In this document: positions 1-12,563 of the stretch, piece by piece | How the letters are laid out: every line of letters begins with the position of its first letter | How positions within the stretch are numbered: position 1 is the first letter of the stretch | Assembly (NCBI GenBank): GCA_019973975.1 | Contig: BMAO01019611.1 | Location: 1-12,563, forward strand | Direction of reading: 5' to 3' | Source of the DNA: Trichonephila clavata | Lineage: Eukaryota | DNA length: 12,563 nucleotides | Made by a program: the position numbers and the translations under genes | The notes under the pieces: generated by a model | The model's database searches: none | What the model was told of the DNA's origin: nothing | The model's input: the letters and a program-made list of their open reading frames with translations, nothing else

Positions 1-1095
1 AAAGAAACATGCTTAACAAATTTCAAGTAATGGGTCTAACAATTAAAAACAGGATTTTTTTTCTGTAACTCCTCTTGACCCCTCGCAACCCTCCTTGGGG
101 GTCAATTTTCGTTTTACTCTTTGTTAGAGGAACTCTATTCCATGAAAGGAACATGCCTACCAATTTTCAAGCAGGATGATCAAATAGTTTAAAATGGAAA
201 TATTTATCAATTACGCCTCTTAATCTCCGAAATAAACTTAGTAGTTCATATTCGCGAAACCCATTTTGTAGCGGTTCTCTACTTTACGAAAGGAATCTGC
301 TTATCAAATTTCAAGACTGTACGTCTAATAGTTTAAAAATGGGGATAATTATCTCTAACGCCACTTGAGCCCCGCAACGCCACTTCTGGGTCTGTTTTCA
401 CAAAACCAATTTTGTAGGGGAATTGCACACTATGAAAGGAATCTGCTTAGCAAAATTTGAAGACTGTGCGTCCAATAAATTAAAAATGCAAAAAAAAATA
501 TATCAATAACGCCCCTTGAACCCCGCAACGCGGCCTAGGGTCGATTTTCACAAAACACATTTTGTAGTGTATCTCTATCCTATGAGAGGAATCTGCTTAC
601 CAATTTCAAACTGTGCGTCTAATAGTTTAAAAATAAAAATAATTATTTATATCTGCCCTTAACACCCCTTGGGGGTCAATTCTCCCAAACCTGTTTTGTA
701 GCGGATATTTACTCCATGAAAGAAACATTCCTACCAATTTTCAAGCAGGGAGGTGAAGTAGTTTAAAAACTAAAATATTTATCTAGTACGCCACTAAATC
801 CCCCGCAACGCCATTTAGAGGTCTGTTTTCGCAAAACCTTCTTATAGCTGATCTCTACTCTATAAAAGAAATCTACTTATCAAATATAAAACTGTGCGTC
901 TAATAGTTTAAAAATGGAAATAATTATCTATAACGCCCTTAAGTCCCGCAACGCCACTTGAGGGCAATTTTCACGAAACCCATTTTGTAGCGTATCTCTA
1001 CCCTATGAGAGGAATCTACTTACTAAGTTTCAAGACTGTACGTCTAATAACTTAAAAATCGGAATTTCTAACGCCCCTTAAACCCCGCCCCCGCA
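1..1095. repeat. Satellite-like tandem array (left arm of large palindrome), unit ~143-150 bp, ~7.5 copies, truncated by window start
   Basis: Seen in sequence. The landmarks TATGA(A/G)AGGAAT and CCCCGCAACGCC recur at about 141/288/431/581/715/861/1005 and about 86/376/526/806/947/1083. Neighbouring units are only about 75-85% identical. The array is the mirror image of 2471-3578 on the other strand. Confidence 0.9.
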
Positions 1096-1650
1096 AATAA
1101 TTGCTGCTAATTTGAAATTACAAACAGACACTTCAATTTTATTTATTTGTATAGATATAGATTGGGATTATAATAACTATTGTTTAAATGTGACTAAAAA
1201 TGTAAATAAAAAAAAAAAGGATTAAAACTAACCCTAAAACTTATCAATTTTTTGTTTCTTGCATTGCTTTTTGCTTATGAAGCCTTGATTTATTATTTTT
1301 AAAAGTGCATCCGAAACAGCCGATGCTCTACTTAACTGAACAGTTGAGATAACTATCATAAAAAAAAATTATGGCACGTGTCAGCGTATTATCATGTGCG
1401 CGTAAATTATTATGTCTCATGAAGAGCATCGGTCGCCAGTAACCAAAACAACGACTTCATTAGCTCAGCTTGGCGTTTAATTTGGCGTTCATCTTGGCAT
1501 TCAGTTTCACGTTCACCCGTATAGTTTCCGTTCCCTAAGAATACGGGAATAAAATATAGCCTATGTTACTCCCCGTTAATGTAGCTTTCCATTAGTGAAA
1601 GAATTTTTAAAATCGCACCAGCCGTTTCCGAGATTAGCCGGAACAAACAA

Positions 1651-1672
1651 CAGACAGACAGACAGACAGACA
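1651..1672. repeat. (CAGA)5 microsatellite in core segment B. Its mirror copy at 1913-1942 is interrupted (gtctgtctttctgcctgtctgtctg)
   Basis: Seen in sequence. Confidence 0.9.
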
Positions 1673-1737
1673 AAAATTTTAAAAATTGGTTTTTTTGTTA
1701 TGAGTACCGTATATACTTTTAGTGCATTAAGTAAAAA

Positions 1738-1850
1738 GCTGCTAATTTGAAATTACAAACAGACACTTCAATTTTATTTATTTGTATAGATTATATATAT
1801 TATACAAATAAATAAATTGAAGTGTCTGTTTGTAATTTCAAATTAGCAGC
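1738..1850. repeat. About 113-bp near-perfect hairpin at the palindrome axis (A, 10-bp ttatatatat, A')
   Basis: Reverse-complement symmetry seen in sequence. The only blemish is one T indel (tttt vs ttt). Confidence 0.9.
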
Positions 1851-2470
1851 TTTTTACTTAATGCACTAAAAGTATATACGGTACTCATAACAAAAACCAA
1901 TTTTAAAATTTTTGTCTGTCTTTCTGCCTGTCTGTCTGTTTGTTCCGGCTAATCTCGGAAACGGCTGGTGCGATTTAAAATTCTTTCACTAATGGAAAGC
2001 TACATTAACGGGGGTAACATAGGCTATATTTTATTCCCGTATTCTTACGGGAACGGAAACTATACGGCTGAACGTGAAACTGAATGCCAAGATGAACGCC
2101 AAGCTGAGCTAATGAAGTCGTTGTTTTGGTTACTGGCGACCGATGCTCTTCATGAGACATAATAGTGTTACGCGCACATGATAATACGCTGACATGTGCC
2201 ATAATTTTTTTTTATGATAGTTATCTCACTGTTCAGTTAAGTAGAGCATCGGCTGTTTCGGATGCACTTTTGAAAATAATAAATCAATTCTTCATAAGCA
2301 AAAAGCAATGCAAGAAACAAAAAATTGATAAGTTTTACGGTTAGTTTTAATCCTTTTTTTTTTATTTACATTTTTAGTCACATTTAAACAATAGTTATTA
2401 TAATCCCTATCTATATCTATACAAATAAATAAAATTGAAGTGTCTGTTTGTAATTTCAAATTAGCAGCAA

Positions 2471-3960
2471 TTGTTTGCGGGGGCGGGGGTTTAAGGGGCG
2501 TTAGAAATTCCGATTTTTAAGTTATTAGACGTACAGTCTTGAAACTTAGTAAGTAGATTCCTCTCATAGGGTAGAGATACGCTACAAAATGGGTTTCGTG
2601 AAAATTGCCCTCAAGTGGCGTTGCGGGACTTAAGGGGCATTATAGATAATTATTTTCATTTTTAAACTATTAGACGCACAGTCTTTATATTTGATAAGTA
2701 GATTTCTTTTATAGAGTAGAGATCAGCTATAAGAAGGTTTTGTGAAAACAGACCTCTAAATGGCGTTGCGGGGGATTTAGTGGCATACTAGATAAATATT
2801 TTCGTTTTTAAACTACTTCACCTCTCTGCTTGAAAATTGGTAGGAATGTTTCTTTCATGGAGTAAATATCCGCTACAAAACAGGTTTGGGAAAAATTGAC
2901 CCCCAAGGGGTGTTAAGGGCAGATATAAATAATTATTTCTATTTTTAAACTATTAGACGCACAGTTTGAAATTTGGTAAGCAGATTCCTCTCATAGGATA
3001 GAGATACACTACAAAATGTGTTTTGTGAAAATCGACCCCTAGGCCGCGTTGCGGGGGTTCAAGGGGCGTTATTGATAATTTTTTTTTGCATTTTTAATTT
3101 ATTGGACGCACAGTCTTCAAATTTTGCTAAGCAGATTCCTTTCATAAAGTGCAATTCCCCTACAAAATTGGTTTTGTGAAAACAGACCCAGAAGTGGCGT
3201 TGCGGGGGCTCAAGTGGCATTATAGATAATTATCCCCATTTTTAAACTATTAGACGTACAGTCTTGAAATTTGATAAGCAGATTCCTTTCGTAAAGTAGA
3301 GAACCGCTACAAAATGGGTTTCGCGAATATGAACTACCAAGTTTAATTTCGGGAGATTAAGAGGCGTAATTGATAAATATTTCCATTTTAAACTATTTGA
3401 TCATCCTGCTTGAAAATTGGTAGGCATGTTCCTTTCATGGAATAGAGTTCCTCTAACAAAGAGTAAACGAAAATTGACCCCCAAGAAGGGTTGCGAGGGG
3501 TCAAGAGGAGTTACAGAAAAAAATTCCTGTTTTTAATTGTTAGACCATATACTTGAAATTTGTTAAGCATGTTTCTTTTGTTGAATAGGGATCCACTAAG
3601 AATGTATTTTAAGCAAATCAAGTTCTGCGGGGGGGGGTGCAGGGGTTACTGGGACGTATTGACAAAAAAAATTACTTTTTTCGAGCAACAAGGACTATAA
3701 TAATGAAATTTGGTTTGCATTTTTCTTTTGTTGAGTTGAAATCCGCTAAAAGCGGTTATTTTGGAAAACGGCTCTCAACGGATTACGGGGATATTGATAG
3801 TAAAACTTTTTTTTTTTCTGTTAGATTTAGACTTGAAATTTGGCTTGCATGTTCAATTTACGGTGTAGAGATCCACCGAAAATTGGTTTTGGGGGAATCC
3901 ACTTGGTTTTTGGGTTACGAAAGAGCAAACATCATTCTATGCATCAATTTTAGAGATTTT
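2471..3960. repeat. Satellite-like tandem array (right arm, inverted orientation), about 10 units of ~145 bp, increasingly degenerate toward 3960
   Basis: The landmark GGCGTTGCGGG(G) and its variants recur at about 2621, 2764, 2906 (degenerate), 3048, 3197, 3340 (degenerate), 3485, 3627, 3775 (degenerate) and 3900 (degenerate). Positions 2471-3578 are the reverse complement of 1-1095 at about 97-99% identity. Confidence 0.85.
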
Positions 3961-4088
3961 TAGAAAGCACAAATTAGATGAGTTCTGCCCCTTTTTTTTA
4001 TCAACAGGCGACAGTTACAGGTATAAGTATATTTTTCAATACAATCGAATTCTTAATGCAGGACTTAGATATCAATAATTTATACATA

Positions 4089-4121
4089 TATATAAGCAGT
4101 AAAAATTTATAAAACATCAGG
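4089..4121 (+). promoter_or_regulatory. Possible core promoter upstream of gag: TATATAAG at 4089-4096 and the Inr-like CATCAGG about 25 bp downstream
   Basis: A motif-level reading in an AT-rich context, about 120 bp upstream of the gag ATG. This is weak evidence. Confidence 0.25.
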
Positions 4122-4211
4122 AAATTCCAGCGAAGCGGGCGGGTAACAGCTAGTTATATTATATAGATAACCCCGATCTACGTAACAATTTAGTGTCAGA
4201 AGTGGGATTTT

Positions 4212-4742
4212 ATGCCAATAACAAGAGCGATGGAGGAGCAACTGAAGGCTCTGTTGGAGGGTATCAATGCTTTGAGAAGAGGCCAAGAAGAGCTGAGAAA
4301 TACTTTAGAAAAGAAACTAGCAGCAGTTGAAGAGGAAATGGAAATAAAAAGGATCAAAGAGCAAGTTGAAGAAAGAATTGAAGTGGCTGGAAATTTTAGC
4401 CAGCGAGTAGAAGATCTTGAAAAGAAGCTTCTAGCTTGCGAGAATATGACGAAGGGAATAAAGTTTGTGCCTGTCTCACCAGTATCAGTGAAACTGTCCA
4501 CCTATGACGGAAATACCAACTGGGAGGTGTACAAGATTCAATTTTCGATAATATCGGAAGCCAATGGATGGACTGAACGGGTCAAAGCATTTCAGTTAGC
4601 AGCATCCCTTAGACGAGAAGCCGCTGAAGTACTGCTGACTCTTCCCGACACAGAGCTGTTAAATTTGAACTCCCTCTATAATGCTCTGGATCTTCGGTTC
4701 GGACAGAAATACCCCAAATATACTACGCTCGCCTGCAGTTGA
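4212..4742 (+). pseudogene. gag: Gag N-terminal coiled-coil plus capsid-like domain (W..W..QF......W.E..K...L, ending LDLRFGQK). It is frame-shifted into the next segment
   Basis: The translation shows the retrotransposon Gag capsid signature. It is followed by a TGA, and the next frame continues with the conserved (L)KRRIQKTGENLQEYAFEIKRLANLAF. Confidence 0.75.
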
Positions 4743-5431
4743 AAAGAAGAATCCAGAAAACCGGAGAAAATTTGCAAGAGTATGCCTTCGAAATAAAAAG
4801 GCTCGCCAACTTAGCTTTCTCAGATTTCTCAGCAAATGTGCGAGAAATGGTTTCTCTCGAGTATTTCGTTGACGGACTGAAAGATGAAGAAATGCAGAGA
4901 GCTGTAAGAATGGCACATGTTCAAGATCTAAAATCTGCACTGTTATATGCCCTGAAATTTGAAGCCGCCACTCAAGCCAGTCTCAGGGTTCACCATTCCA
5001 TCCGAGGAGCTAGAGTGCTTGCAGATGAGTCACGTGAATCTCCGTGTGTAAAGGATATTGAGAAATTGATAGATGAAATTCAAGGTTTAATGACTCAACG
5101 TCAAAAACAGAGGAGACGTATCATCACGTGCTGGGAGTGTGGTGAATCAGGGCATATCAGAAGTAACTGCCCCCGAACAAATAAGGAAGATCACTGCACA
5201 AAGTGCTGGGGATGCGGTGGAGCAGGGCATCTGAGAAGTAATTGCCCTCGAGTAAATCAGGAAGATCCTCACCGTGCAAGTGTAATCGAGTCTAAGAAAG
5301 TGTGTGGAAACCGAAAAGGATCAGCAAAGGGGAATGGAGGTGTCCCTTTAGGAAGACAGGAGAACAGTAAACACTGCTCGAGAATCGAAAAGAAATTTGG
5401 CGTAATAGATCCAGTAGACCGCCAAGTATAA
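4739..5431 (+). pseudogene. gag: Gag C-terminal / nucleocapsid with two CCHC zinc knuckles (CWECGESGHIRSNC, CWGCGGAGHLRSNC)
   Basis: Two CX2CX4HX4C motifs are seen in the translation. There is no D(T/S)G protease motif before the integrase module. Confidence 0.8.
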
Positions 5432-5442
5432 CGCCATCGACA

Positions 5443-5925
5443 TTGGAATCGGACCCGTGGAATGATGAGAGCGTCCGAAAACATCAATTGGCTGATCCTG
5501 AAATTAAACCAGTAATAGAATTCAAAGAGTCATCTGATGAAAAGCCCAGTTGGCAATACATAGCCTCTTTCCATCCTACAACGCAGCGTTACTGGGCTCT
5601 TTGGGACTCTCTGCACCTGAGAAATGGTGTTTTATATCGAAAATGGGAGTCTGACGACGGAAAAGCATTCAGATGGCAATTAATACTCCCAAAGACGAGA
5701 ATATCGGCAGTCCTAAACGAACTCCATTGTAGTCCAACTGGTGGTCATTTTGGTGTTATGAAGACCTTACAAAAAGTTCGAGAGCGCTTCTACTGGAACA
5801 ATGTGCGGAGTGACGTTGAGAAATGGTGCCGCACATGTGATCCCTGTGCTGCACTTAAAGGTCCAAAAAACGCACCAGAGGACGACTCCAGCTGTATAAT
5901 GTGGGAGCGCCTTTCGAACGAATAG
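5443..5925 (+). pseudogene. int: Pol region immediately preceding integrase, plus the integrase N-terminal HHCC zinc-binding domain (LNELHCSPTGGHFGVMKTLQKVRERFYWNNVRSDVEKWCRTCDPC)
   Basis: H-x3-H ... C-x2-C pattern. The upstream segment W..W..L.LRNGVLYRK...QLILP is typical of gypsy pol at the RNase H to integrase junction. Confidence 0.8.
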
Positions 5926-6491
5926 CTTTCGACATCTTAGGCCCACTTCCAAGATCATCAGACGGCAACAACAACATCCTGGTTGTCATGGACTACTTCA
6001 CTAAGTGGCCTGAAGCCTATCCTATATCCGACCAAGAGGCCCCGACTGTTGCAGAGGTTCTAGTTCAACACTGGATCTCAAGATACGGAGTTCCTCTACA
6101 ACTGCACTCCGATCAGGGAAGAAACTTTGATTCTGCAGTTTGCAAGAGACTGTGCGAGATACTCGGCATTGACAAAACCCGGACAACAGCTTTACATCCT
6201 CAGTCTGACGGCATGGTAGAGAGGTACAATCGGACCATCCTGAACAGCCTCTCTCTCCTGGTATCCAGTAATCAACAGGACTGGGACCAGAAACTGCCTC
6301 TTTTCCTGCTTGCCTACAGGAGTGCCGTCCACGAGACAACTGGCTATTCCCCATCCCAGATGCTCTTCAGACGTGATCTTCGTTTGCCTTCAGATCTCTT
6401 GTTCAGCCGGCCACCAGATGCTCCATTGGCGCCTGAGGAGTATGTCGAGAAACTCCAGGCACGAATGGAGGAAATGCATCATTTTGGCTAG
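5901..6491 (+). pseudogene. int: Integrase catalytic core (DDE: D in FDILGP, D in HSDQG, E in MVERYN)
   Basis: Retroviral-type integrase core motifs in the translation. The end of this segment overlaps the next frame (frameshift near 6480-6495). Confidence 0.85.
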
Positions 6492-6762
6492 GGAAAGAAT
6501 CAGCATGGCTTCAGAGGAGATGAAGACCCGATACGACGCAAGAGCAACCGGACACGACTTTCACGAAGGCGACAAAGTGTGGTTATGGAATCCGAAACGT
6601 CACAAAGGACCCTCTCCGAAGCTGCAGACCAACTGGGAAGGTCCTTACACAGTCCTAAAAAGACTGAATGACGTTGTGGTTCGGATACAGAAATCACCAC
6701 ACACAAAACCGAAGGTAATACATTATAATAGGCTAGCCCCTTACCTTGGGCAAAGAGAATAA
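6310..6762 (+). pseudogene. int: Integrase C-terminal GPY/F (SH3-like) module (GDKVWLWNP...KLQTNWEGPYTVLKRLNDVVVRIQ). No chromodomain. Stop at 6760-6762
   Basis: GPY/F-type motif in the translation. Only the 3' part of this ORF (from about 6490) is the real reading frame. Confidence 0.75.
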
Positions 6763-7159
6763 GATCCTTAACTTCAGACCATGGTCACTAACTATTTTGT
6801 GAATAATGTAAATTGTGTTTCTCTTTTCTATTCCCTTAGTTTTATTTTAGTGTTGTAATTTATGTTTGTATTTTAAATTTATTTGCTTTTTGCTGTTGAG
6901 TATTTGTTACTTTATACTCGATTATTATGTTAATAGGTTATGTCTGTAAATAGATGCCTCTTACTCAGGGAGTGTACTGCTCGGGACGTGCAGTCTTTGA
7001 GGAGGAGGCAATGTTACGAATTTTGTATAAAATAATGTAAATAATTTGTATTTGGATGTGCAATGCCTTTATATTACTCTATGCTATATTTATTTCATGT
7101 TAAAATTGTAATATTCACAAGCAACGCCGTCCCTTACGTTATAATGGCGATTCAATGGG

Positions 7160-7356
7160 AACTTGGCGAAATATTGGCGATAGAGCCAAGTTGGCATAAT
7201 TTTTGGTGCCCATGTTGGCGAGTTCGGGACCCTCTGAATTCTTCTAGAAATTCGGGAAGAAATCTTCTAATTTCAAGACCTATGATGCAAGTGGATCTTT
7301 CTCGAAAGGTCCGCGAGGCCTATAAATAGAGAGATGCCCGCCGAAAATCAATCAGT
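7160..7356 (+). promoter_or_regulatory. Arthropod-type core promoter: TATAAATA at 7321-7328 and Inr TCAGT at 7352-7356. Upstream is an array of TTGGC(G/A) motifs at 7164, 7175, 7191, 7204, 7215 and an NFI-like palindrome TTGGCgatagaGCCAA at 7175-7190
   Basis: Motifs and spacing seen in sequence. The TATA-to-Inr distance is about 30 bp. No credible ORF lies downstream, so this could be the U3 promoter of an LTR remnant. Confidence 0.45.
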
Positions 7357-8510
7357 CTGGTTTTGACTTGCGATTGGTAGACTTGCCTTGACCGTGATGA
7401 CTAGCGATTATATATAGCTCGGCTGTTCAATAGGACTAGCGGTGCTTGTGAATAATCTTTTACATACGTGTATGTTAGATACTGCTAATTGTGTTTGAGT
7501 GCTATTGAAGGTGCGTGGAACTTTTGAGATTTATTTTGCGAATATTACTGCTGAATCCTGTATTTCAAGGATTAGATTTTCTACAACAAATTCTCATCGC
7601 TCTTAAAGAACTGTCTTGTTCCTTGCGACTAATTTGCATAATATCCTCGAACCCCGATCAACGTAGCAGTATGAAATCTTTAAACTGTAGGATAACTCTA
7701 TTTGCATTGGTCCACCCAATTTTTCTTCTTTTGTCAATTTCTTTTCTTTTTATAAAAAAAAAAACATTTCTGATTGTTTCTTTTTCACTTTGAAGTGAAA
7801 TACCTCCTATTTCTTGAGACATTTTTATATTTGTGAGTGCATTATGAAAGTGTAAAATTTGTGCATTTTTCAAATTCTTTTGGGAAGGAAAATTCAGTTA
7901 TGTACCACAATTCTCAAGCGATAACATGATTATTTCCCAGAATTTCTGAGCGTTGCAAATATTAATGGGTTACATGATCTCTCTCTTGTAACTGTGAAAT
8001 CATGATGCACACATTCTTGGATGAATGTTTAAAAACAAATTTTTAACCTTCTGAGCATAAGCATCCTTTTGCATTACATACTACTTGTATTTCAGCTGAG
8101 ACATGGTTTGTTTTTTTTGTTTTTGAACAAATTACTATTAACCAAGAACATTTTTACTGTCTCTCTACTAAAAGTACAAAGCATTCATAATTAGCATATC
8201 AGCAGCCTAATGCATAACGTTAGAATGCTACAAATTATACGCGTACAGTTTTCCTTAGCATATTTTTATTTGAATGTAATGTAGTGACGTTTTTTATCGC
8301 TTTCAAAATGAATGAATCAGGGGGGAAAAAATGTTTCATGCGTATTTATAAATTAAATATCTGAACTCGTGCTGATTTGGAAACATTCATGACCCCATCA
8401 ATATTTTAAAGCATATAATTATCAATAAAATCACTTGCATGTACCTAAAATCTGAGTAGGAAGCTAAATTCTTTCGATTCTTAACAATTGAAAAACACGA
8501 GTGCTGGTTT

Positions 8511-9039: not shown

Positions 9040-10700
9040 AGCTCAAAGCAATGGAGATTTTGCCTGAACCGGAAGAAGAAAAGGGTACTAAAATGACTGC
9101 AGCGCCCCCATAGTAAGCTTTATGGTCAAACTTGTCCATAGAGTGAGCAGAGTAAAAAAAAATTACATCTGCATGGTTCATCACTTTCCACATTTGTTGA
9201 AGCTCCAGCACGTTTAAAAGTACGGGCATTATCCGATATCACCATGGAACACAAACCTCGTCGAGCAATAAAACGTCGAAAAGGAAGAAGAAATGTGTCA
9301 GTAGTCATATTACCGACCAGCTCTAAATGAACCCTTCTTGTTACTTCACAAGTAATTAACAGTATATATTGTTTGGCATCACTGTTTTGACGAATAATGG
9401 TCCTGCAAAATCAATCCCTACAACTGAAAAGGGGGGGGGGATTCTGTTACGCGGACGTCTAGAAGAGGAGCGATAACTTGATTTCCTGGATTAGAGTTAA
9501 ATCTTTTACAAATAATGCACTTTTTTGGGAGAGACTTTATAGTCTGACGAGCTTTCAAAATCCAGTATTTCTCTCTCACCTGCACCAATGTGTGAGATAC
9601 ACCAGAATGAAATACTCTTTTATGTGACTCCCAAATTAACAATTCAGTTAACGTAGACTTGGAAAGAAGAATAATAGGATGTTTCTCATTCGCTGATAAA
9701 TAAGTAGTTTTTCCTAGTCTTCCTGTGACTCTCAGAACACCGTTGTGATCAAGGATGGGGTTCAAACACAATAACTTGGAATCTTTTTGTAAAGATTTAT
9801 CACTCTTCAAGCAAGTAATTTCCCTGGAGTAAAAATCATTTTGAATTACTTTCACCCAAAATATTTCTGCTTTGGAGAGTTCTTCCCTTTTCGAAGTCTT
9901 TCCTTCTGCGAAAAATATAAGCCGTAACTCTTAGCAGTTTAAGAAAACTACTATATTTGTCTGGATCGACAATTTTCTCGTGAGTTATTGTTAAGTTGAC
10001 AATAAGACTGAATTTCAACTCAACAGTTTCAGAATCTATTGATTCAAATCCTTTTAATTTGGGCCAAAGGTTTTCAGAATCTTTTAAACATTCAGGACCG
10101 TGCCACCATTCTTCGAAATTTATAAGCTCTCTGCTAATTATGCCTTTAGTCAATAAGTCAGCAGGGTTTTGTTTACTACTGCAATGCCTCCAAGATACAG
10201 GGTCTGTGTTTTCTTTAATTTCTGAGATTCTATTGGAAACGAAAGGTATAAATTTGGATCCTGAGCCGTTAATCCAATATGGCACAATCCCCGAGTCACT
10301 CCACAGTATTATTCTTTTAATATCCTTGAAAAATCTCTTAAGATATTTCACTAATCTAGCAGCAATTACAGCACCCATTAATTCTAACCTAGAAAGAGAT
10401 CTTTTTAATACAAATAACGAATCTAGTATTAAAATTGTTATCAGAAATTTTATATCTTAAGTAGGCCACAGCTCCAAAAGATTTAGGTGAAGCATCCGAA
10501 AATACATGTAACTGTAAATCATTTCTATTAATTAAATTTGTGGGGGAATAGTAGTATCGCGGAATCTTTAAATTTTGCAAATGTTCAATTTTTTTACACT
10601 TTTCTATAACCCCTTGTTTTATTTGTTCTTTCATAACCGAATTTTTCCTCTCAAATAATACTTCAAAATGTTTTAATCCGGAAGCAGGCACGCACACGAT
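9040..10700 (-). pseudogene. pol: BEL/Pao-family LTR-retrotransposon pol fragment: RT-RNase H junction (LQLHVFSDASPKSFGAVAYLRY), RNase H (WSDS..VPYWI ... NPADLLTKG), integrase HHCC (HPIILLSKSTLTELLIWESHKRVFHSGV ... CIICKRF) and the start of the integrase core (GIDFAGP ... FIARRGLCSMVISDNARTFK). It is truncated on both sides and frameshifted
   Basis: Motifs read from the minus-strand ORFs 10389-10748, 9836-10378, 9418-9855, 9126-9308 and 9038-9229. One frame break coincides with the C10 homopolymer (plus-strand G10 at 9431-9440). Confidence 0.8.
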
Positions 10701-10732
10701 ACTAACGTTAATGGTCGCGCGGAATGACTGAG

Positions 10733-10746
10733 TCTCTCTCTCTCTC
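10733..10746. repeat. (TC)7 microsatellite at the upstream (protein-N-terminal) truncation point of the BEL/Pao fragment
   Basis: Seen in sequence. Confidence 0.85.
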
Positions 10747-11863
10747 ACACCCCAATCTTTTTTTTAAATTATTTTTACTATACACGATAAAAATCACAAT
10801 TCTAGCAAATAATTTAAGTAAGAGAAAGCATACTTACCTACTTTCAAAGACTTTTCAATTTTTGTTTGATAATTTGAGAAAAAATCCAATAAAACTGAAT
10901 TTAAACGTGCGAGACCTTATTAAAGGACGCAAATCACTGCCACTTTTCGCTAACACTATAGGAACGTCATTTCAATGCATTTTTATTTTCATTTCATGTT
11001 CATCGCTTTTTCTGAGATTTTGTGAAGAAACGTTTGCCACTCCGAAAAAAGAGGGAGATATGTGACAAATACATTAAAGTTCCTCTGAAGATTGTCATAT
11101 AGGTGGATACTGTCAAGGTCATTGGTCAAATTTTAAAATATAAATTTAGACAAAAATTTAATCCCGGGTTTTCGTGATTGGAAAAACACCAGGATCCCGG
11201 GCTGCAAACCCTAACCCAAAGAAAAGTCGTGAATATGGCGAAGTGGATAGCAGTCAGACACAGTAGATCACCGAAAAACTCCTCATATCCTCGAATCTTT
11301 ATATTTTTCTTTTTAACAAAATGAAAAGTCACTTTATGTCATTCACTCTATAAGGATCTACTCCAATTAAATTTCTTTTAAAAGTAGCCCAAATTATAAA
11401 AATATTGAAAGAGTAAAAGGAGACAAATACTGGAGAAGGAGCAGGAGGAGCAGTTTCACTGGGTGGGCTGAGCCTCCCAGTGATTTGATTGGCTGATCCA
11501 TTCAATCCTATCGGTGGGCGTGGAAAATACAGATGGCACGTTCGGAGTGAACGGCATATGTTGTAAGAAACCAGAGAAAAGAAAAACTACGTGAAACAGA
11601 AAAATAATTTAGAAAAAAGTATTTTTATTTTGGAACCATCTTGCTCAATTGCCAGCTAACAGCTATGAATTAGAATAAAAAGGAGTATCGCGAACGGGCG
11701 CCATGTCAGCTCGCGATGAAGGGAGAGTTGATTTACGGGGAATGAAGTCATTTACAAAATGAAAAATAATAAAATGAGATACTGATATAATTAAACAAAA
11801 GAGGTCCCGTGCTACCATCTGGTGGCCGGGGAAAGAGACGGAAGATGATCCAAGCGCAAAATT

Positions 11864-12026: not shown

Positions 12027-12563
12027 TTTTTTTTTAAAGTTCCCATTTGCATTTCTGGTGAATTACACCCTGAGCCGTTTGGCGTAGGGGAAATTCACGA
12101 AATGCTGGTCGAGAAGAGCTCTTGGTCTTTTGAGCGAGGAAGGCACTGGTGGGTCATATGCAGGCTGATTTTGTATAAGTTCATTGGGAATTTGTGGTAT
12201 TTTAACAAAGAAACGTTTTGAAACATTTTGTATGTAAGGAAGAGTGGGTTGCACTTTTAAATCACGGTAAATGACTTCATTCCTAACATACCAGGGAGCA
12301 TTCACTATCTGTCTCAAAATAGAGTTAGAAAGTGTGTGCAGTTTACGGATGTGATACATGCCGGAGGAGCCCCAGATGGGGGAACCGTACAGCATGATCG
12401 GTCTGATGATTGAGTTAAAGAGCAAAACATTGTGCCTGATCGCTAGTTTGCTCTTCTTAGAGAGTAGCTGTTTCAGCATACTATGAACAATGTTCGCCTT
12501 TCAGCGAGCTTGTTCGATATGATGGGCAAAAGTTAATTTTGCGTCTAAAAACAACCCTAGGTA
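12027..12563 (-). mobile_element. 3' end of a jockey-clade non-LTR (LINE) retrotransposon. It holds the RT C-terminal thumb (YLGLFLDAKLTFAHHIEQAR*KANIVHSMLKQLL ... IRPIMLYGSPIWG ... NAPWYVRNEVIYRDL), stop at 12063-12065, a 27-nt 3' UTR and an A9 tail (plus-strand T9 at 12027-12035). It extends beyond the window end and is a pseudogene, with an in-frame stop near 12495
   Basis: Translation of minus-strand ORF 12063-12479 plus my own translation of 12480-12563. APWYVRN and LYGS..WG are hallmark jockey/I-type RT C-terminal motifs. Confidence 0.8.

Follow-up and report, generated by a model that had tools for sequence, protein, structure and literature searches.

The window, a stretch of 12,563 nt from the orb-weaver Trichonephila clavata (contig BMAO01019611.1), begins with a near-spacerless palindrome that spans positions 1-3578, with its centre near 1795 and position 1 pairing with position 3578. 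Tandem units of about 146 bp occupy 1-1071 (minus strand) and 2501-3665 (plus strand), and two further degenerate units lie at 3704-3902. We read the palindrome as very probably a real inverted pair of transposable elements, two young head-to-head copies of one composite transposon, to which homologous copies exist in Trichonephila clavipes. The features of the two copies, with units named L in the left arm and R in the right arm, are the following.

1-1071, minus strand: left-arm array, with units L8 at 1-62 (cut by the window edge), L7 at 63-207, L6 at 208-352, L5 at 353-499, L4 at 501-646, L3 at 647-782, L2 at 783-927 and L1 at 928-1071.
1072-1102, minus strand: end remnant of a first unit, flanked by the array and by the 54-bp module A; mirror of 2469-2500.
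1103-1156, minus strand: module A, outer copy, a 54-bp 5'-terminal module with reverse complement ATCTATAC...
1157-1737, minus strand: inner non-array segment X, mirror of 1851-2408.
1738-1791, minus strand: module A, central copy, terminating in ...GTATAGAT.
1789-1800, no strand: palindrome centre, asymmetric, 12 nt, GATTATATATAT; TA-rich and largely self-complementary.
1801-1850, plus strand: module A', central copy, without the first ATC and one A.
1851-2408, plus strand: inner non-array segment X', with a (GTCY)n-type microsatellite at 1914-1941, one unit-like stretch and about 350 bp without assignment.
2409-2468, plus strand: 5' terminus of the array-bearing element (E2), where ATCTAT precedes module A' (2415-2468).
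2469-2500, plus strand: remnant of the end of a first unit, a stub.
2501-3665, plus strand: right-arm array, with units R1 at 2501-2645, R2 at 2646-2791, R3 at 2792-2928, R4 at 2929-3077, R5 at 3078-3225, R6 at 3226-3372, R7 at 3373-3516 and R8 at 3517-3665.
3666-3902, plus strand: degenerate outer units R9 at 3704-3791 and R10 at 3811-3902 (profile E values 1.6e-9 and 5.6e-8).
3903-4155, plus strand: right (3') module, a tail of about 250 bp that ends in ...CCAGCGAAGCGGGCGGGTAACAGCTAG and is followed by T.

Units were located by Tandem Repeats Finder, an nhmmer unit profile and mirror mapping, and were cut in register. The seven complete pairs of mirror partners are 96.6-98.6% identical (mean 97.4), whereas units within one arm share 55-78% (mean 67-68), neighbours 57-75% (mean 65-67) and non-partners across the arms 55-78%. 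In a neighbour-joining tree of the units, all seven mirror pairs are sister tips. A preliminary description of this DNA had claimed that identity between the arms far exceeds that between units and that mirror partners should pair in a phylogeny, and both claims hold; its conclusion that the arms did not arise by independent expansion is likewise supported. Its figures need correction: adjacent units, given there as 75-85% identical, share 57-75%, and the pair cited (288-431 and 431-581) reaches 74.5%. The stretches 221-340 and 3241-3360, offered as near-identical, are indeed partners, but as quoted they lie a few bases out of register and match at 94.3%.

Global alignment of 1-1795 with the reverse complement of 1796-3700 comprises 1809 columns at 96.4% identity. 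The arms differ by 26 substitutions (16 transitions and 10 transversions) and 27 indel events, one of which is 12 bp long. Each arm contains 7.4 units visible in the palindrome and about 730 bp of non-array sequence (1072-1795 and 1796-2500), a part that the preliminary description did not mention, so that the symmetry continues beyond the array through this sequence to the 12-nt centre. The boundaries at 1 and 3578 are also no natural ones: they are set by the window edge, which cuts the left arm, and coordinate 1 is an edge rather than an arm end. The right-hand copy runs on past 3578 to 4155. By inference the left copy extends to about -576, and its outer terminus there would read CTAGCTGTTACCC... 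if the arm ends exactly at the element end.

At the centre, the two arms are joined at the 5' ends of the elements across TATATA. In context the centre reads GTATA-GATTATATATAT-TATAC at 1784-1805, and folding of 1730-1860 yields a perfect hairpin with the 12-nt centre as its loop (-57.8 kcal/mol, z = -22). Its length is that of a perfect palindrome, with three adjacent bases deviating. An Rfam search gave just sub-threshold matches to microRNA precursors at the centre (48.9 bits, the gathering score being 101), of the kind that hairpins give generically, and no signal of transfer RNA or of short interspersed elements.

The 54-bp module consists of ATCTATAC..., a degenerate GTCT-like stretch and the start of a unit. 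Its two left-arm copies, at 1103-1156 and 1738-1791, match at 54 of 54 positions, and the 5' end of the outer copy resembles the 5' ends of the T. clavipes copies. The remnant at 1072-1102 is a weak profile match, at model positions 120-143. Segment X contains one unit-like stretch, an (AGAC)5 microsatellite (1652-1671) and, at 1470-1481, the site of a 12-bp indel; the microsatellite of segment X' at 1914-1941 reads GTCTGTCTTTCTGCCTGTCTGTCTGTTT.

Homologous sequences were collected from eight T. clavipes loci (L001-L003 and L014-L018), reached via a translated junk open reading frame (ORF) of the outer units and via gene models that contain homologous sequence. This ORF, of 108 amino acids at 3637-3963, has no Pfam match and served just as a handle for finding loci; the array has no coding potential, its period of 146 not being a multiple of three and stops occurring in all frames. 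At all eight loci, sequence collinear with and homologous to the right arm is found from the array as far as 4155, 73-76% identical, as in the alignment of window positions 2830-4128 with L001 564-1827. The end of the 3' module at 4155 is the point where this homology stops. The T. clavipes element has defined ends, a 4-nt microsatellite, an internal array and a 250-bp tail. Seven copies are full-length, each measuring 1.3-2.1 kb with 8-13 units of about 146 bp, compared with 10 units in the right arm of the window.

The termini of the element are TCTATATATA..., preceded by A, at the 5' end and ...GGGTAACGGCTAG, followed by T, at the 3' end. The copies share a 5' end that reads (A)TCTATATATATATAAAGGAGAAAAGCGA, followed by a (CTCA/CTGA)n microsatellite, which in T. 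clavipes lies 25-45 nt from the 5' end, and then by the first unit. A terminal TC after A, as ATCT(A/C)TATA..., is found in L001, L003, L015, L016 and L017 and in E2 of the window (2409/2415), with an edge blurred by (TA)n; the 5' ends of L014 and L018 are altered. The shared 3' end is ...GTGAAGCGGGTGGGTAACGGCTAG. Homology stops at ...CCCAGTGAAGCGGGTGGGTAACGGCTAG before T in the T. clavipes copies and at ...CCAGCGAAGCGGGCGGGTAACAGCTAG before T in the window. CTAG terminates six of eight copies (the window and L014-L018), and the next base is T in five of these six; L002 has CGAG and L003 has CAAG. Flanks are often (TA)n, several 5' flanks included. A TA-rich run follows CTAG-T in three of four young T. 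clavipes copies (L014, L015 and L016), while in L018 CTAG-T is followed by GATAATATATA.

The T. clavipes copies also reveal the age of the unit differences. In independent copies, units at the same position are 90-98% identical, against a within-copy mean of 52-59%. Positional orthology extends to the window, where R6 matches the L001 unit A4 at 81%, R7 matches A5 at 77% and R8 matches A6 at 75%, with R8 also matching unit C4 at 74%. Differentiation of the units by position is thus common to the copies, and unit divergence is of family-level age. The excess of mirror over neighbour identity is not particular to an inverted duplication, since solo copies in T. clavipes show the same pattern, and identity between copies above identity between units is generic to this transposon. 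The outward degeneration of the units is real, with profile bit scores of 109-138 for R1-R7 and of 90, 33 and 28 for R8, R9 and R10, the last two having no mirror inside the window. It is not local decay: the degenerate outer units of L001, L002 and L003 match one another at 81-85% in the same positions, which indicates that degeneration is built into the element.

Within the array, R1 is closer to R4 (82%), and R2 to R5 (79%), than either is to its own neighbours (2501-3225), which suggests a duplication with a shift of three units. The two extra units of the window array are missing from L001. Classical satellite DNA, that is, long arrays of homogenised monomers expanded in place, was considered and rejected. 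The arrays of the window and of T. clavipes hold 8-13 units between conserved non-repeat modules, and these units have a mean identity of 52-68% and are position-differentiated.

A palindrome with tandem-repeat arms could itself be a mobile unit, as in foldback-type transposons. The locus does resemble such an element, for instance Tetris of D. virilis (PMC4079207), in its long inverted tandem-repeat arms, their outward degeneration and an almost loopless centre, and Drosophila FB and Galileo share this general plan. The likeness is limited to this one locus. Each of the eight T. clavipes members is a solo element in a single orientation with distinct 5' and 3' ends, and no inverted partner lies within up to 10 kb at these loci. 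No minus-strand units were detected in the 25-35 kb inspected at each of L014-L018, and at L002 a single stray inverted fragment (71% identity) lies 3 kb off. Moreover, the outer arm end in the window corresponds to the 3' end of the family and the centre to its 5' end, so that each arm is a complete element. The family is therefore not a foldback family, and a foldback origin of the palindrome is highly improbable.

The family is instead classified as a putative non-autonomous element of the Helitron superfamily with HINE or DINE-1-like architecture, a mode of movement suggested by its sequence organisation. HINEs combine a left module bearing a 4-nt (GTCY-type) microsatellite with a variable segment, tandem repeats in the middle and a right module that includes a short palindrome (PMC7492417, PMC4067079). 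Their sub-terminal inverted repeats lie 2-4 nt from the 5' end and 38-60 nt from the 3' end, a palindrome of 5-10 bp lies 8-35 nt from the 3' terminus, and insertion occurs at TT or T-rich sites (PMC7492417). Like Cg_HINE of Crassostrea gigas, Pearl and Drosophila DINE-1 (PMC7492417, PMC4067079), the present elements are non-coding and 1-2 kb long. Their left module ends in a 4-nt microsatellite (GTCY-type, here at 1914-1941). A variable segment comes next, then a short array of satellite-like repeats in the centre (about 150-170 bp in that comparison), and the conserved right module has a short candidate palindrome some 10 nt before its 3' end; copies are dispersed and vary in array length. 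They differ from HINEs in that their units are strongly position-differentiated rather than homogeneous and their sub-terminal inverted repeats are TA-runs: 5' TCTATATATATATA can pair by eye with GTATACATATATAC, about 45-58 nt from the 3' end, a pairing not separable from low complexity.

The termini, A/TC...CTAG/T, resemble those of canonical Helitrons and differ from the T-rich or TT ends of Helentrons. The 3' flank begins with T in five of six copies; the 5' side gives no clear picture, and flanking sequence is rich in TA, not in T. With canonical non-autonomous Helitrons such as the lepidopteran Lep1 (PMC4038834), the family shares the 5' TC after A, the 3' CTAG before T, AT-rich or (TA)n targets and, on one reading of the inner segment, a tandem arrangement with a 3'-truncated inner copy. 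No terminal inverted repeats were found between the element ends beyond TA-runs. No target-site duplication is visible either: by eye, the flanks of L003 and L014-L018 contain no direct repeat. Helitrons are defined in part by a palindrome of 16-20 bp about 10-12 nt before the 3' end (PMC4038834). This is missing here, and the body is nearly all tandem array, which sets the family apart from Lep1-type elements. In its place is a stem of 4-5 bp (CCCA..TGGG), 10-11 nt from the terminus, which is present in L003 and the young T. clavipes copies and weaker in the window and L002. It is not significant, its folding energy being no better than that of shuffles (z between +0.9 and -0.6).

Scans with the 3'-end pattern AGYRAAGYGGGYGGGYAACRRC returned four metagenome, six prokaryote-genome and no viral matches. 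These were set aside as chance, since the bacterial and environmental contigs have no match to the unit profile. A literature search that joined Helitron, tandem repeats, spiders and non-autonomous elements found no paper. The inverted pair is an ordinary repeat structure.

The differences between the arms bear on how and when the pair arose. Substitution distance is low (Kimura two-parameter distance 0.015, or 1.5%) and equal in the array part (15/1071) and the inner part (11/724). The 53 differences are spread evenly, even over-evenly, with a variance-to-mean ratio of 0.49 per 100 bp, and the longest identical run, 147 bp, is as chance predicts (P=0.49). Together these values fit one recent copying event and bear no sign of conversion. 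The proposal that a diverged array was copied recently in inverted orientation is upheld as to the recent inverted copying, at 1.5% substitutions alike in array and non-array; what was copied is not an array but a whole composite mobile element.

Homogenisation by gene conversion, also proposed in the preliminary description, would instead make the palindrome old. Large palindromes in other genomes are homogenised in this way, and the arms here resemble each other far more than any T. clavipes copy resembles the window copy. No conversion tracts were detected between the arms. The over-even spread, the chance-length identical run, the equal divergence of array and inner part and the lack of high-divergence patches left unconverted all argue against it, and we give an old, converted palindrome very little credence.

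The same differences also bear on whether the left arm exists in the genome. It could derive from a chimeric long read (or amplification chimera) that folded back at the TA run and was built into a contig end; the arm differences would then be residual read errors or the other haplotype. We regard such an artefact as improbable. In its favour, long perfect palindromes are unstable in vivo, and the present one is practically spacerless, starts inside the left arm at position 1 and lies in a 12,563-nt window compatible with a contig end. Indels make up 27 of the 53 differences, about half of them in runs of at least three bases. Polarised by paralog consensus (an L001/L003 outgroup was too noisy, at 10 against 15 with 11 ambiguous), the changes derived in the left arm are mostly 1-nt losses from G/C runs. 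The direction of indels depends on the region, the left arm being shorter in 11 of 14 events in the array part and the right arm in 10 of 13 in the inner part (Fisher p=0.007). The substitutions, on the other hand, have a normal spectrum, at 1.5% with a transition:transversion ratio of 1.6 (16:10) and a GC-to-AT bias (14 sites with G/C on the left and A/T on the right, seven the reverse). Three parallel CpG-to-CpA changes fall in the internal right arm (R1, R2 and R5; GCAT/GCGT sites at 2639, 2785 and 3219), and it is the supposedly erroneous left arm that keeps the family consensus. Overall indel direction is balanced between the arms (14 against 13), and the 12-bp event resembles slippage. 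The imperfect centre excludes a fold-back in a k-mer graph, and polishing would tend towards identical arms.

The 12-bp difference concerns the motif TTGGCGTTTAAT, which is present as a tandem duplicate in the left arm (1465-1515) and as a single copy in the right (2068-2103), a slippage-type indel that tells the arms apart.

If the palindrome is real, as we consider very probable, its two copies may have come about in either of two ways. Tentatively, at slightly less than even chance, we infer a fold-back duplication. Each copy starts at the centre with the 54-bp 5' module and continues outward with the (GTCY)n microsatellite and its variable sequence of about 560 bp, a repeat of the 54-bp module, about ten 146-bp units more degenerate outward, and the 250-bp tail ending in CTAG. 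The units diverged anciently within the transposon family, and the whole element, old array included, was copied recently, in what would be a single inverted duplication of a resident copy at the DNA level. Such an event could proceed through fold-back or a switch of template where the TA run beside the 5' end of the element is self-complementary, and be followed by small changes at the palindrome centre. Mirror partners are about 97% and neighbours about 67% identical because the units are old and the whole-element copying recent. A one-step duplication also accounts for the identical composite structure, for the equal number of units in both arms and for a centre as long as that of a perfect palindrome. 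Fold-back (template-switch) inverted duplications likewise form near-spacerless palindromes on a self-complementary TA run, with uniformly low arm divergence and small asymmetric changes at the centre. The present locus departs from them in that its defining outer boundary lies outside the window and its centre coincides with a transposon end.

This coincidence also fits a second insertion, in which a sister composite copy of one young subfamily transposed in the opposite orientation into (TA)n beside the 5' end of the resident copy, making the arms independent. The family prefers, or is bordered by, (TA)n, the 5' end of the left copy is complete and the spacer consists of TA alone. Overall identity among four young T. 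clavipes copies from different contigs is 92-95%, and the closest (95%, with 3% substitutions) differ to the same order as the arms. Since tandem Helitrons with 3'-truncated inner copies are known (PMC7492417), an upstream element (E1) and E2 could move as one composite. A second insertion nevertheless requires a transpositionally active composite of both 54-bp modules and the 560-bp inner segment, although no other copy of the inner segment was seen among the T. clavipes loci sampled. The incoming element must also land no more than about 10 nt from the end of its partner, the right copy must be 5'-truncated by 2-3 nt, and the arms must have identical unit numbers although array length is labile in the family, T. 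clavipes copies 3-6% apart already differing by up to four units. We therefore hold a second insertion to be unlikely.

Several observations speak against an inverted pair of Helitron-type copies made by fold-back. The feature that would decide among fold-back, second insertion and artefact, namely whether the symmetry stops exactly at the left CTAG end or extends into flanking DNA, lies about 576 bp left of the window. No second head-to-head pair was found, with all eight T. clavipes copies solo. The 54-bp module right of the centre is without ATC, so that the fold-back course needs a later change. Single-nucleotide indels, often in homopolymers, account for half of the differences between the arms, and their region-dependent direction could point to sequence error. 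As to the class, the canonical 16-20 bp Helitron 3' hairpin is absent, and no autonomous partner (Rep/helicase) has been identified for the family, none having been sought, which is also a difference from HINEs.

The inner segment reads either as a 3'-truncated upstream element (E1; segment X') in tandem with a complete E2 or as the long variable left segment of one element. Helitron-type elements in tandem with 3'-truncated inner copies have been described (PMC7492417). No homolog of the inner segment exists in about 250 kb of sampled T. clavipes loci, and the ORFs of X' have no protein-level matches. About 350 bp of it (1157-1500 / 2090-2408) have neither a T. clavipes homolog in these loci nor a Pfam or Rfam match, and may be captured host sequence or part of another element. 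The inner segment resembles the common lepidopteran (GTCY)n repeat, but a lepidopteran origin was rejected on the gag matches, which are all from T. clavipes among those listed; what survives is an architectural likeness to DINE-1-like elements (PMC4067079).

For annotation, these results mean that an apparent inverted duplication of a satellite array is to be read as a pair of transposon copies that carry an ancient, position-differentiated array, and that mirror identity above neighbour identity should not be taken as evidence on satellite evolution. For spider genomics, they define, with its termini, an abundant Helitron/HINE-like family of orb-weaver genomes. The outer units of this family appear to be repeatedly mis-incorporated into T. 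clavipes gene models. The outer-unit peptide ...LLGRIDRQNSSFRTTRTIIIKFGLHVSFVELKSAK constitutes residues 2-53 of about nine models (P0124-P0142; L014-L018 at about 10001-10160), annotated as Tcb1/Tcb2 transposases, Tf2-9, R1 and 297 polyproteins, and models named sodium channel, adenylate cyclase and rhoGAP likewise contain the outer-unit stretch. A systematic annotation artefact is the probable cause, exonisation a possible one.

If real, the palindrome would be a candidate both for a fragile site and for a source of hairpin RNA; if an artefact, it would mark an assembly error at a contig end. A real palindrome that is also transcribed, for example by retroelement read-through, could hypothetically give a hairpin RNA, about 1.8-2.4 kb long, whose dicing would yield small RNAs directed at the abundant HINE-like family. 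We consider this very doubtful; if true, it would be a spider counterpart of the hairpin RNA (hpRNA) and endogenous small interfering RNA (endo-siRNA) loci of Drosophila, and also a rare instance of an animal germline tolerating a multi-kb palindrome that has no spacer.

The rest of the window is transposon debris. The main further features are listed below.

4212-6762, plus strand: Gypsy-type remnant, separated by 57 bp from the HINE-like 3' end at 4155; its gag continues directly into integrase (H2C2, rve and a C-terminal SH3-like domain).
9418-10748, minus strand: BEL/Pao remnant with Peptidase_A17 and an integrase zinc-binding domain, with frameshifts.
12063-12479, minus strand: ORF of 138 amino acids resembling the tail of a reverse transcriptase, with no Pfam match.

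The Gypsy-type remnant is without protease, reverse transcriptase and RNase H, and no 5' long terminal repeat (LTR) was seen. Its gag has two CCHC knuckles, and a 75-bp tandem repeat at 5128-5267 is a duplication of the knuckle. A protein search with the gag ORF gave 236 matches; all 120 among the matches listed are from T. clavipes, the best at 69-74% identity, which identifies the host as a spider, T. clavipes or a relative. Two dispersed repeats are shared with the T. clavipes loci. The first, at 7012-7672, matches L003 20606-21244 at 69% and may represent the Gypsy remnant's LTR; within it, 7028-7219 also matches L002 18201-18371 (78%) and L003 13683-13851 (73%). The second, at 10657-10948, matches L001 7651-7932 at 76%.

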